From the NCBI RefSeq assembly GCF_054482595.1, contig NZ_CM137008.1: a DNA stretch of 64,000 bases; one strand, given 5' to 3'. Shown here piece after piece: positions 16,692-18,883 of this stretch; position 1 is the first letter of the stretch; the number at the start of each line of letters is the position of its first letter. Made by a program: the position numbers and the translations under genes. The notes under the pieces were generated by a model. The model was not told the origin of the DNA. It saw only the letters and a list, made by a program, of their open reading frames with translations, and searched no databases.

Positions 16692-17843
16692 ATGTCACTT
16701 GTCACCGATCTACCCGCCATTTTCGATCAGTTCTCTGAAGCTCGCCAGAAAGGCTTTCTCACCGTCATGGATCTCAAGGAGCGCGGCATTCCGCTGGTTG
16801 GCACTTACTGCACCTTTATGCCGCAAGAGATCCCGATGGCAGCCGGTGCGGTTGTGGTTTCGCTCTGTTCCACCTCTGATGAAACCATTGAAGAAGCGGA
16901 GAAAGAACTGCCGCGCAACCTCTGCCCGCTGATTAAAAGCAGCTACGGCTTCGGCAAAACCGATAAATGCCCCTACTTCTACTTTTCGGATCTGGTGGTC
17001 GGTGAAACCACCTGCGACGGCAAAAAGAAAATGTATGAATACATGGCGGAGTTTAAGCCTGTTCATGTGATGCAGCTGCCGAACAGCGTTAAGGACGATG
17101 CCTCGCGTGCATTGTGGAAAGCCGAGATGCTGCGCTTGCAAAAAACGGTAGAAGAACGTTTTGGGCACGAGATTAGCGAAGATGCTCTGCGCGATGCTAT
17201 TGCGCTGAAAAACCGCGAACGTCGCGCACTGGCCAATTTTTATCATCTTGGGCAGTTAAATCCTCCGGCGCTTAGCGGCAGCGACATTCTGAAAGTGGTT
17301 TACGGCGCAACCTTCCGGTTCGATAAAGAGGCGTTGATCAATGAACTGGACGCGATGACCGCCCGCATTCGTCAGCAGTGGGAAGAAGGCCAGCGACTGG
17401 ACCCGCGTCCGCGCATTTTAATCACCGGCTGCCCGATTGGCGGCGCAGCAGAGAAAGTGGTGCGCGCGATTGAAGAGAATGGCGGCTGGGTTGTCGGTTA
17501 TGAAAACTGCACCGGGGCGAAAGCGACCGAGCAATGCGTGGCAGAAACGGGCGATGTCTACGACGCGCTGGCGGATAAATATCTGGCGATTGGCTGCTCC
17601 TGTGTTTCGCCGAACGATCAGCGCCTGAAAATGCTCAGCCAGATGGTGGAAGAATATCAGGTCGATGGCGTAGTTGATGTGATTTTGCAGGCGTGCCATA
17701 CCTACGCGGTGGAATCGCTGGCAATTAAACGTCATGTGCGTCAGCAGCACAACATTCCTTATATCGCTATTGAAACAGACTACTCCACCTCGGATGTCGG
17801 GCAGCTCAGTACCCGTGTCGCGGCCTTTATTGAGATGCTGTAA
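16692..17843 (+). CDS. yjiM: 2-hydroxyacyl-CoA dehydratase-family protein YjiM, 383 aa
   Basis: ORF 16671-17843; start at the ATG at 16692 preceded by GGGGAAGGA; HgdB-like dehydratase component family. Confidence 0.8.
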   Translation: MSLVTDLPAIFDQFSEARQKGFLTVMDLKERGIPLVGTYCTFMPQEIPMAAGAVVVSLCSTSDETIEEAEKELPRNLCPLIKSSYGFGKTDKCPYFYFSDLVVGETTCDGKKKMYEYMAEFKPVHVMQLPNSVKDDASRALWKAEMLRLQKTVEERFGHEISEDALRDAIALKNRERRALANFYHLGQLNPPALSGSDILKVVYGATFRFDKEALINELDAMTARIRQQWEEGQRLDPRPRILITGCPIGGAAEKVVRAIEENGGWVVGYENCTGAKATEQCVAETGDVYDALADKYLAIGCSCVSPNDQRLKMLSQMVEEYQVDGVVDVILQACHTYAVESLAIKRHVRQQHNIPYIAIETDYSTSDVGQLSTRVAAFIEML

Positions 17844-17852
17844 GGAGTGGCA

Positions 17853-18620
17853 GTGACATATTCGATTGGCATTGATTCTGGTTCTACCGCCACCAAAGGG
17901 ATCTTACTGGCAGACGGCGTGATTACGCGCCGTTTCCTCGTTCCAACACCCTTTCGTCCGGCAACAGCAATTACTGAAGCCTGGGAAACTCTGCGCGAAG
18001 GGTTAGAGACAACGCCGTTTCTGACGCTCACCGGCTACGGGCGGCAACTGGTGGATTTTGCCGATAAACAAGTGACGGAAATCTCCTGTCACGGGCTGGG
18101 CGCACGGTTTCTTGCGCCAGCAACGCGCGCGGTAATCGACATCGGTGGTCAGGACAGCAAAGTGATTCAGCTTGATGATGACGGTAACCTGTGCGATTTC
18201 CTGATGAATGACAAATGCGCGGCGGGCACCGGGCGTTTCCTGGAGGTGATCTCGCGCACGCTTGGCACCAGCGTCGAGCAACTCGACTGCATTACCGAAA
18301 ATGTCACGCCGCACGCCATCACGAGTATGTGCACAGTGTTTGCTGAATCAGAAGTGATCAGCCTGCGCTCAGCGGGCGTCGCGCCAGAAGCGATTCTCGC
18401 CGGAGTGATTAACGCGATGGCGCGGCGGAGTGCCAATTTCATTGCTCGTCTCTCCTGTGAAGCGCCGATTCTGTTTACTGGTGGCGTTAGTCATTGCCAG
18501 ACGTTTGCCCGGATGCTGGAATCTCACCTGCGAATGCCGGTAAATACCCATCCTGATGCGCAATTTGCTGGCGCAATTGGCGCGGCGGTAATTGGTCAAC
18601 GAGCGAGAAAACGCCGATGA
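17853..18620 (+). CDS. yjiL: BadF/BadG/BcrA/BcrD-type ATPase (dehydratase activator-like) YjiL, ~255 aa
   Basis: Acetate/sugar kinase-fold motifs IGIDSGSTATKG and DIGGQDSK. Start is GTG at 17853 (6 nt after AAGGAG) or GTG at 17847. Confidence 0.8.
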   Translation: MTYSIGIDSGSTATKGILLADGVITRRFLVPTPFRPATAITEAWETLREGLETTPFLTLTGYGRQLVDFADKQVTEISCHGLGARFLAPATRAVIDIGGQDSKVIQLDDDGNLCDFLMNDKCAAGTGRFLEVISRTLGTSVEQLDCITENVTPHAITSMCTVFAESEVISLRSAGVAPEAILAGVINAMARRSANFIARLSCEAPILFTGGVSHCQTFARMLESHLRMPVNTHPDAQFAGAIGAAVIGQRARKRR

Positions 18621-18883
18621 AAGAGTTTTTATTTTTATTTCACTCCACGGTCGGCGTCATACAAACCCGCAAGGCATTGCAGGCAGCGGGCATGACTTTT
18701 CGCGTCAGCGATATTCCCCGTGATTTACGCGGCGGCTGCGGGTTATGCATTTGGCTGACCTGTCCCCCCGGCGAGGAAATACAATGGGTGATCCCTGGGC
18801 AAACCGAAGCGATATATTGCCAGCAGGGCAGCGACTGGCAGTGCGTGGTGCATTACGATGCAGAAGCGTCAACCAGGCAATAG
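18617..18883 (+). CDS. Small conserved hypothetical protein (88 aa), translationally coupled to yjiL
   Basis: ATG overlaps the yjiL stop (ATGA), suggesting an operon. The DUF3343-like assignment is tentative. Confidence 0.5.
   Translation: MKEFLFLFHSTVGVIQTRKALQAAGMTFRVSDIPRDLRGGCGLCIWLTCPPGEEIQWVIPGQTEAIYCQQGSDWQCVVHYDAEASTRQ

Follow-up and report, generated by a model that had tools for sequence, protein, structure and literature searches.

The double-cubane cluster proteins (DCCPs) are characterised by their cofactor only and have been assigned no physiological function (Jeoung et al.). Class II of these proteins, exemplified by YjiM/YjiL, is predicted to have a wide, open active-site channel that admits a large substrate, with a CoA ester, or else some other large organic molecule, as the favoured substrate for YjiM (Jeoung et al.). 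Small proteins of the DUF3343 family share one conserved cysteine, and their name of 'putative Se/S carrier' rests on comparative genomics alone (Lin et al., 2015). The family is also present in organisms that lack SelD (Lin et al., 2015), and sulfur is therefore as possible as selenium.

Both protein types are encoded in the DNA analysed here, a window of 64,000 nucleotides from NCBI RefSeq assembly GCF_054482595.1 (contig NZ_CM137008.1), in which the relevant features, all on the + strand, are:

16577..16691, +, yjiN-yjiM intergenic region of 115 nt, presumed promoter and 5'UTR, with the yjiM Shine-Dalgarno sequence GGAAGGA inside
16692..17843, +, yjiM, ATG start, TAA stop, 383 aa
17853..18620, +, yjiL, GTG start, TGA stop, 255 aa, AGGAG 5 nt upstream
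18617..18620, +, ATGA overlap between the ytiA start codon and the yjiL stop codon, predicted to couple translation
18617..18883, +, ytiA allele (the small ORF), ATG start, TAG stop, 88 aa
18737..18739, +, Cys41 codon (TGC) in the GGCGLC loop of ytiA, predicted S/Se attachment site
18800..18883, +, divergent 3' third of ytiA, from the allele comparison with K-12

The initial annotation had described a tight packing of a dehydratase-like protein (here of the HGD-D family), a BcrAD/BadFG ATPase and an 88-aa protein, and its coordinates are exact. The 9-nt spacer between yjiM and yjiL contains AGGAG, and yjiL and ytiA do share the reported 4-nt ATGA at 18617-18620, within ...CGCCGATGAAAGAG.... 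The small ORF is not an unannotated gene, as it is already ytiA/DUF3343 in both RefSeq and K-12: in strain XH990, which is 100% identical here, RefSeq lists all three CDSs, the small one as WP_000657677, and the K-12 counterpart is ytiA (b4715, 85 aa), a gene present in 5385 of the 5426 complete genomes of E. coli. The yjiM-yjiL-ytiA operon is already annotated in E. coli and the small ORF is not new. In itself the locus is unexceptional E. coli K-12 DNA with existing annotation, but it touches on the function of DCCPs and on the supply of selenide to SelD, and the selenium link suggested for it is a testable lead.

The GC3 of the small ORF equals that of yjiM (0.62 in both), and falls to 0.34 in the DNA 3' of the ytiA stop codon. 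From about nucleotide 184 the identity of the allele to that of K-12 drops from ~99% to ~65%, and the divergence runs on into an AT-rich, espX6-like island. Most E. coli genomes match the ytiA region only up to position 18827, and the 88-aa allele is complete in 644. In this species the 3' third of ytiA forms a recombination boundary.

The three genes are probably expressed anaerobically, and yjiM appears in a listing of Fnr-regulon genes. No sigma-70 consensus lies inside 16577-16691; the closest one is at 16503-16532, within the 3'-terminal part of yjiN, and such matches are no more numerous than in shuffled sequences. An FNR-like site at 16478-16491 has two mismatches and is not above chance, and the terminator scan gave nothing beyond the shuffled expectation.

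YjiM matches the Pfam HGD-D family (PF06050, E=3.8e-122). This membership, the activator type of the adjacent ATPase and the K-12 label of 'putative dehydratase subunit' would be compatible with a radical 2-hydroxyacyl-CoA dehydratase of which the small protein forms a dedicated subunit. Such a role is, however, highly improbable, as YjiM scores far below the cut-offs of the dehydratase equivalogs (HadC 95.8 bits against 700; HadB 20.5 against 750) and passes that of the double_cubane equivalog NF040772 (532.2 bits against 350). A single HGD-D ORF, not an alpha/beta pair, lies between yjiN and ytiA, followed 9 nt downstream by the start of the archerase-type ATPase gene yjiL; we know of no dehydratase with a DUF3343 subunit. 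Searches against the PDB align residues 26-383 of YjiM with the DCCP structures 6ENO and 7YYL (E=4e-75; a 45%-type match to 6ENO). The full DCCP cysteine set is present: Cys 40, 59, 78, 93, 108, 273, 302, 304 and 335 are invariant in an alignment with the Carboxydothermus hydrogenoformans protein (6ENO) and two other orthologues. The spacer lengths of the published seven-cysteine motif (Jeoung et al.) are not literally matched by YjiM, but all aligned cysteine columns are kept. The lone HGD-D gene, the passed NF040772 cut-off and the failed HadC cut-off are the reasons to file YjiM as a DCCP, and the radical-type dehydratase of the initial annotation gives way to a predicted class II double-cubane [8Fe-9S] reductase, which is the better label.

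The activator part of the initial annotation is borne out by matches of YjiL to PF01869 (E=1e-75) and TIGR00241, CoA_E_activ (361.6 bits, cut-off 125.4). Its structural relatives are HadI (4EHT, 4.5e-52), HgdC (1HUX, 1.6e-51) and DCCP-R (7YYL_E, 3.6e-46), and its motifs NDKCAAGTG and CTVFAESE align with those of HadI (4EHT). From these matches YjiL is predicted to be an archerase-type ATPase (BcrAD/BadFG) that uses a [4Fe-4S] cluster to inject electrons into, and so activate, YjiM.

YtiA is a real, conserved gene product, and the domain search on the 88-aa protein returned PF11823 (DUF3343/Se_S_carrier; E=3.6e-13, 49.2 bits, gathering threshold 25). The match spans profile positions 2-57 of 69, the C-terminal hairpin being divergent. 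The AF2 model (pLDDT 88) shows a ferredoxin-like fold, in which Cys41 sits on the loop formed by residues 33-42, between strands 2 and 3. Cys41 and Gly42 are invariant in the DUF3343 alignments (38 sequences, plus a broader family alignment), and Cys41 is the sole cysteine invariant throughout the family. A PDB sequence search with YtiA found no significant match, and the fold search returned generic ferredoxin-like matches (PII, CutA, UreE and DUF2179-type proteins). A single-sequence search of 1.84 billion representatives gave only 42 matches, the protein being too short for E-values on this scale, although the distant matches (P0142, P0147 and others) were of use. A family profile gave 3135 matches in a set of 5.8 billion proteins; the 120 among the matches listed are all enterobacterial and say nothing about fusions. 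The literature on E. coli ytiA (b4715) yielded no expression, interaction or biochemical data. A TusA/SirA-like carrier was considered and rejected: PF01206 is unmatched, the motif is GGCGLC and not CPxP, and the fold matches are not to TusA. Apparent YjiL-YtiA fusions (P0129, P0133, P0138) have garbled sequences suggestive of frameshifts in the gene calls, and provide no evidence of fusion.

YtiA might also act on the ATPase itself, as a redox or regulatory adaptor that serves YjiL as electron donor or thiol reductant, or as a PII-like gate of ATP hydrolysis. The weak top Foldseek matches of YtiA are PII proteins, whose T-loop position corresponds to the Cys41 loop, and enterobacterial YtiA has a CGLC motif and C49. 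DUF3343 genes lie most often directly beside the activase gene, after yjiL in the 19 gammaproteobacterial loci sampled and directly before the activase in L161, L165, L167, L065 and L135. However, Hafnia and Aeromonas have lost C44, and neither C44 nor C49 is conserved in Morganella, all of which possess the three genes; YtiA thus has no CxxC or cluster-binding site that is conserved, and a CxxC redox or metal site (CGLC plus C49) was discarded on these losses. Most activases, moreover, function without such a protein, and an adaptor role is distinctly unlikely.

The gene arrangement is very stable in Gammaproteobacteria. All 19 orthologous loci (Enterobacterales and Aeromonas) keep yjiM-yjiL-DUF3343; they come from Escherichia, Citrobacter, Klebsiella, Kosakonia, Cedecea, Trabulsiella, Superficieibacter, Hafnia, Morganella and Aeromonas. 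The small ORF, whose loss or frame change in such operons would have spoken against the initial annotation, is intact in the 18 complete loci, with a length of 78-102 aa; the 19th ends with its contig. Co-directional genes often share a lone overlap of 4 nt, but here the junction is conserved and thus above chance, since the yjiL stop and ytiA start overlap or abut in 19 of 19 loci (as ATGA, GTGA, TAATG or TGATG, with an 11-nt overlap in Hafnia). The median pairwise dN/dS of ytiA (0.28, against 0.12 for yjiL) indicates purifying selection. By contrast, the flanks vary: yjiN is upstream of yjiM in only 10 of the 19, and in the metagenome loci L005 and L007 the triad is placed amid unrelated neighbours. 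Selenium genes were found near the triad in none of the 19 loci, E. coli included.

Outside this group the small gene is far less faithful. Among 61 Firmicutes loci with a 56-68% identical YjiM, 45 have an activase gene within 5 kb of yjiM (19/19 in Gammaproteobacteria), but a DUF3343 gene occurs within this distance in only seven and is adjacent in only one. The carrier is therefore either not obligatory or encoded elsewhere in the genome in the other 54. The dedicated partnership proposed for the small protein is thus partly supported: the three genes co-occur in Gammaproteobacteria but not in most of the Firmicutes loci, and the partner is not a dedicated one for the family as a whole.

After the activase, the commonest specific neighbours in the 61 loci are YedF (9), an SclA-like lyase (TIGR01977; 9-12) and DUF3343 (7), followed by SelD (6), MocA (5-6), YqeB (4) and YqeC (4); xanthine-dehydrogenase-type Mo subunits are encoded near yjiM in four. 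The six loci with selD within ~5 kb compare with ~0.2 expected by chance, by our own rough estimate, and no Se/S gene was found nearby in 43 of the 61. Selenium genes accompany yjiM-yjiL in about ten distinct gene orders, such as yjiM-yjiL-selD-yedF-DUF3343-yqeC-mocA-yqeB (L032), yqeC-yqeB-yedF-selD-yjiM-yjiL-mocA (L047, L048 and L078) and yedF-lyase-DUF3343-yjiM-yjiL (L073). In the actinobacterium Slackia, genes for an activase, DUF3343, Sec lyase, YedF, a second DUF3343 and an HGD subunit are linked (Lin et al., 2015, Table 1). DCCP and activase genes thus recur with selD, yedF, the SclA-like lyase, yqeB/yqeC and DUF3343 in at least three phyla, and the context of the yjiM relatives suggests selenium or sulfur handling rather than acyl-CoA ester dehydration.

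These distributions bear on the possibility that the two activities are not mechanistically coupled, YjiM/YjiL reducing a CoA ester or some other large organic molecule, and YtiA being an independent S/Se chaperone that shares their transcript in Enterobacterales and Aeromonas. The substrate prediction for class II DCCPs (Jeoung et al.) fits this arrangement, as do the many Firmicutes operons that lack the small gene, the faster evolution of ytiA relative to yjiL and the recombination boundary in its 3' third. Against it, the coupled junction is preserved across two orders despite the shifting flanks, DUF3343, DCCP and activase genes are independently co-located, in varied orders, in Firmicutes, a sediment metagenome and Slackia, and no CoA-transferase or acyl-CoA genes are recurrent next to yjiM. 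An uncoupled chaperone is, on balance, unlikely.

Sampling from the DUF3343 side was also carried out in metagenomes. This sample leans towards a single Firmicutes-type motif and is highly redundant, 48 of its 80 loci falling in one group, and was de-duplicated for this reason. Independently sampled DUF3343 genes are mostly coupled to yedF or to an SclA-like lyase gene, and DCCP/activase genes occur in only four of the 19 de-duplicated groups, the remaining 15 having yedF, selD or the lyase. Curated models confirm the order DCCP-yedF-DUF3343-activase-lyase in L161, L165 and L167, and selD-yedF-DUF3343-activase-lyase-DCCP-DUF3343 in L135. The DUF3343 start codon usually overlaps the stop codon of the lyase or yedF gene upstream, the pattern expected of a sulfur or selenium acceptor, as SufE is for SufS.

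A single invariant loop cysteine is typical of sulfur-relay proteins, and this feature, with the tight coupling of DUF3343 to genes of the cysteine-desulfurase family, would also suit a non-catalytic maturation factor, in which the Cys41 persulfide supplies sulfide for the [4Fe-4S] cluster of YjiL or for building or repairing the [8Fe-9S] cluster of YjiM, for example its bridging sulfide. A DUF3343 gene adjoins a second DCCP paralogue, of class I-like type, at three loci (L065, L086 and L135), in line with such a function. However, it is difficult to reconcile with the 54 Firmicutes YjiM loci where DUF3343 is not nearby and with the 15 DUF3343 groups without a DCCP, and selD, yqeB and yqeC as neighbours point specifically to the use of selenium and not to Fe-S assembly. 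Maturation is for these reasons an unlikely role.

The reading we prefer, tentatively but as a real possibility, is that YjiM/YjiL reduces a sulfur or selenium species borne on Cys41 of YtiA, so that an ATP-driven, low-potential reductase works with a small carrier. By analogy with DCCP/DCCP-R of C. hydrogenoformans, YjiL would receive an electron from ferredoxin or flavodoxin on a bridging [4Fe-4S] cluster and, upon ATP hydrolysis, inject it into the [8Fe-9S] protein YjiM. YtiA, with its ferredoxin fold and its translational coupling to YjiL, may carry an S or Se atom on the exposed loop as a Cys41 persulfide or perselenide, as the gene context suggests. The likely donor would be a cysteine desulfurase or selenocysteine lyase, possibly via YedF. 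The carrier-bound S(0) or Se(0) might then serve YjiM/YjiL as substrate, or as the direct acceptor of the reduction product, and the reduction would free sulfide or selenide for downstream users such as SelD. A substrate presented on a protein would fit the wide, open channel predicted for DCCPs of class II. To our knowledge, the classical screens for selenoprotein-deficient E. coli mutants gave only selA-D, and any role of the operon in selenium supply would therefore be dispensable in the laboratory. Thiols or thioredoxin can reduce persulfides without ATP, and it is then hard to see why an ATP-driven reductase would be required, unless it is the Se(0)/HSe- couple that counts.

This couple lies at a potential far below that of S(0)/HS-; a literature search returned no value for it. 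In a selenium version of the relay, a perselenide made on DUF3343 or YedF by selenocysteine lyase would be reduced to selenide, and a very low-potential, ATP-energised electron would be needed because the couple is so negative. The in vivo route from lyase-derived Se(0) to selenide for SelD is, as far as we know, unresolved in the field. YjiM/YjiL/YtiA, and the orthologous DCCP-activase-DUF3343 modules of the selD/yedF/sclA clusters, could fill this gap in selenium trafficking as an ATP-driven reductase that converts carrier-bound Se(0) to selenide for SelD, but this step is rather doubtful. If true, it would provide the first physiological function for double-cubane enzymes, and if the link holds, the 'putative dehydratase' would be re-annotated as an S/Se-relay reductase.

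The closest described counterpart is the DCCP/DCCP-R pair of C. hydrogenoformans (CHY_0487/0488; 6ENO, 7YYL), with which YjiM/YjiL shares every aligned cluster cysteine and the adjacency of the reductase and ATPase genes. By contrast, YjiM lacks the N-terminal extension of ~35 residues that closes the substrate channel in the Carboxydothermus protein, and the E. coli operon includes a third, translationally coupled DUF3343 gene that is unmentioned in the DCCP papers.

HgdAB/HgdC, HadBC/HadI and the class I benzoyl-CoA reductases have the HGD-D fold and archerase-type, ATP-dependent electron injection in common with YjiM/YjiL. YjiM differs from them in being a single HGD-D subunit with the double-cubane cysteine set, and its gene has no CoA-transferase or partner subunit gene nearby.

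Cysteine desulfurases and sulfur acceptors form pairs such as SufS-SufE, CsdA-CsdE and IscS-TusA. The likeness here is that of a small single-cysteine protein coupled right after a gene for a class V PLP lyase, which is the commonest DUF3343 context outside Gammaproteobacteria. However, YtiA is neither a sequence nor a fold relative of SufE, CsdE or TusA, and in E. coli it is coupled to the ATPase/reductase pair, unlike the desulfurase-coupled acceptors.

Finally, the SelD/YedF/SclA/YqeB/YqeC clusters (Haft and Self, 2008; Lin et al., 2015) embed DUF3343 and, in several lineages, a YjiM-type DCCP with its activase. By contrast, the triads of E. coli and of all 19 gammaproteobacterial loci are not near any such genes, and the E. 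coli version would represent a reduced set, consisting of the reductase, the ATPase and the putative carrier, in a genetically tractable host.

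The operon yjiM-yjiL-ytiA is genuine, and all three of its genes had been annotated previously. The coordinates and the ATGA overlap of the initial annotation agree exactly with the ORF list and the sequence:

16692-17843, yjiM, 383 aa
17853-18620, yjiL, 255 aa, GTG start with AGGAG upstream
18617-18883, ytiA, 88 aa, its ATG overlapping the yjiL TGA (ATGA)

The small ORF, first treated as unnamed, is not a new gene, since RefSeq already carries the same three genes and K-12 has a counterpart, ytiA (b4715, 85 aa, "uncharacterized protein YtiA"). The window comes from E. coli. Its 2.9-kb region around the operon is 100% identical to strain XH990, and 5386 of the 5426 complete genomes contain it.

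YjiM, a member of Pfam HGD-D (E=3.8e-122), scores 532 bits on NF040772, the NCBIfam equivalog of double-cubane-cluster anaerobic reductases (cut-off 350). It falls far under the equivalog cut-offs for dehydratases and benzoyl-CoA reductases, so that the protein first described as a dehydratase is a predicted reductase; the accompanying idea, YtiA as a dehydratase subunit, is very improbable. YjiM shares all aligned cysteines with the double-cubane cluster protein (DCCP) of C. hydrogenoformans (6ENO/7YYL, E=4e-75). YjiL, with 362 bits on TIGR00241, is a typical archerase ATPase and matches the structures of HadI, HgdC and DCCP-R with E-values of 1e-46 to 1e-52. Homology shows YjiL as the predicted ATP-driven electron injector and YjiM as the double-cubane acceptor. 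The pair has already been named as the example of class II DCCPs, YjiM lacks the N-terminal helices that close the channel, and a physiological substrate is known for no DCCP (Jeoung et al.).

YtiA consists of a DUF3343 domain (PF11823, E=3.6e-13), whose name "putative Se/S carrier" derives from comparative genomics (Lin et al. 2015). Only F8, P34, C41 and G42 are (nearly) invariant in the family, and C49 and the CGLC motif of E. coli YtiA are not kept by the orthologues from Hafnia, Morganella and Aeromonas, which argues for a single-cysteine carrier over a CxxC or metal site. A role as cluster-maturation factor appears improbable. In the AlphaFold model (pLDDT 88) YtiA folds as a ferredoxin-like sandwich, and Cys41 lies on the loop joining strands 2 and 3; fold searches returned generic relatives and no TusA- or SufE-like fold.

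The gene is present in 5385 of 5426 E. coli genomes, as the 88-aa allele in 644, together with an espX6-like island, and as the K-12 85-aa allele in all others that bear it. Identity between the two alleles is ~99% as far as nt 183 of ytiA and ~65% beyond it, a step that indicates a recombination boundary inside the gene (window ~18800), despite which neither frame is interrupted and the C-terminal hairpins are similar. Together with the yjiK homologue, only 78% identical to K-12 yjiK, this drop delimits a divergent segment from the last third of ytiA through the island (~18800 to 22634). The features around the operon are:

~12612-13556, minus strand, Rpn-family recombination-promoting nuclease gene upstream of mdtM (2213-3157 of locus L001), annotated intact in this strain; its K-12 counterpart rpnD (b4584) is a pseudogene
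18884-21700, AT-rich island directly 3' of the ytiA stop (GC 0.32-0.36 vs 0.54 for the operon); K-12 lacks it and has yjiK 64 nt after ytiA
19196-21523, espX6-like gene, 775-aa pentapeptide-repeat protein (T3SS effector EspX6 in the O157:H7 annotation), with internal low-complexity repeats (KDKDKD, PATPATP/KIPGTH, repeated DKQANDN units)
21792-22634, yjiK homologue

The literature lists yjiM among Fnr-regulon genes, which is consistent with an oxygen-sensitive system; scans of the upstream region gave no convincing FNR site or promoter for yjiM. Only because of this reported regulation do we mention an FNR-like site (16478-16491, TTTATTCGTGTCAA, two mismatches) and a weak sigma-70-like promoter (16503-16532), both located ~160-210 nt before yjiM, inside the 3' end of yjiN, and at or below shuffled expectation.

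A YjiM/DCCP alignment, searched against one genome for each species, yielded 80 loci, with orthologues of ~383 aa (56-96% identical). They were annotated with locally built HMMs, which separated DUF3343 cleanly (E<=2e-18) from noise (E>1). In all 19 gammaproteobacterial loci, from ten genera of Enterobacterales and from Aeromonas, the order is yjiM-yjiL-DUF3343 and the yjiL stop overlaps or abuts the small-gene start. The small ORF is unbroken (78-102 aa) in the 18 complete loci, the 19th ending at a contig edge. The triad behaves as a module, since flanking genes vary from locus to locus. Median dN/dS is 0.28 for ytiA vs 0.12 for yjiL. That YtiA acts on YjiL as a redox or regulatory adaptor is quite unlikely. 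Three candidate YjiL-YtiA fusions among database proteins (P0129, P0133, P0138) are garbled across the junction and most likely represent frameshifted gene calls from low-quality assemblies.

The proposal of a dedicated partner is partly supported: judged by its own refuting condition, absence or frame loss of the small ORF in orthologous operons, it holds throughout the Enterobacterales and Aeromonas loci, but does not extend to YjiM orthologues in general, as most Firmicutes loci have no nearby DUF3343. There, a DUF3343 gene lies within 5 kb of yjiM in only 7 of 61 loci and adjoins it in one (L073), in every case within a selenium-metabolism cluster. With gene identities confirmed by curated models, the arrangements are:

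L032: yjiM-yjiL-selD-yedF-DUF3343-yqeC-mocA-yqeB
L047, L048, L078: yqeC-yqeB-yedF-selD-yjiM-yjiL-mocA
L073: yedF-(SclA-like lyase, TIGR01977)-DUF3343-yjiM-yjiL
L080, L085: DUF3343-lyase-yedF-yjiL-yjiM
L065, L086: second, longer DCCP paralogue between DUF3343 and activase

When all neighbours were clustered, the commonest specific families after the activase were YedF (9 loci), SclA-like lyase (9-12) and SelD (6), with MocA, YqeB, YqeC and xanthine-dehydrogenase-type molybdenum subunits also recurrent; the bigger clusters were generic ABC ATPases and aminotransferases. By a rough estimate, selD would fall within 5 kb by chance in ~0.2 of 61 loci, against six seen, in several arrangements. In four Firmicutes loci (L032, 1390-3531; L047; L048; L054), xanthine-dehydrogenase-type Mo-binding subunits are encoded no more than 5 kb from yjiM-yjiL, along with yqeB, yqeC and mocA, which places the reductase there inside maturation clusters for selenium-dependent molybdenum hydroxylases. 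No selenium genes were found near the triad in the 19 gammaproteobacterial loci.

From this context, YtiA may be a single-cysteine relay that a class V lyase would load with S(0) or Se(0); YjiM/YjiL would reduce the persulfide or perselenide on the carrier and so release sulfide or selenide. We hold this general reading tentatively, and its specific version, perselenide reduced to selenide for SelD, is doubtful. Several points count against the relay: the carrier is missing from most Firmicutes operons, the gammaproteobacterial triad has no selenium neighbours, persulfides are reducible by ordinary thiol systems and yjiML is not known to have turned up in E. coli sel mutant screens. DUF3343 also occurs in organisms without SelD (Lin et al. 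2015). That YtiA is merely co-transcribed with an enzyme acting on an organic substrate is unlikely. A protein-borne substrate for YjiM would be compatible with the open channel that Jeoung et al. predict for class II DCCPs. What is added here is a link, drawn from gene context across phyla, between double-cubane reductases of the YjiM type, DUF3343 carriers and genes of selenium/sulfur trafficking, a testable lead on function.

DUF3343 was also sampled independently, by a metagenome scan with a Firmicutes-type motif; this sample, biased by the search motif and heavily redundant, comprised 80 loci, or 19 groups after de-duplication. YedF genes were near in 12 groups, SclA-like lyase genes in 11 and selD in 6. 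DCCP/activase genes were near in 4, in orders such as DCCP-yedF-DUF3343-activase-lyase and selD-yedF-DUF3343-activase-lyase-DCCP-DUF3343. A Slackia STRING table has this same set, listing activase, DUF3343, Sec lyase, YedF, DUF3343 and HGD subunit without comment (Lin et al. 2015). The second DCCP paralogue (424-453 aa, ~495-515 bits on NF040772; L065, 938-3373, minus; L086, 463-2841, minus; L135, 8169-9750) has a class I-like N-terminal extension and also adjoins DUF3343, so the association is not restricted to class II proteins such as YjiM. The DUF3343 start codon is usually overlapped by a lyase or yedF gene. On human-gut metagenome contigs DUF3343 most commonly follows a gene for an SclA-like (TIGR01977) cysteine desulfurase/selenocysteine lyase, the lyase stop and the DUF3343 start overlapping by 4 nt (L110, 4844-5980 / 5977-6213; L128, L133 and others), and 48 of the 80 loci fall into one sequence group with this context. 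The overlap suggests a lyase-acceptor pair, in which the SclA-like lyase and DUF3343 would be analogous to SufS and SufE.
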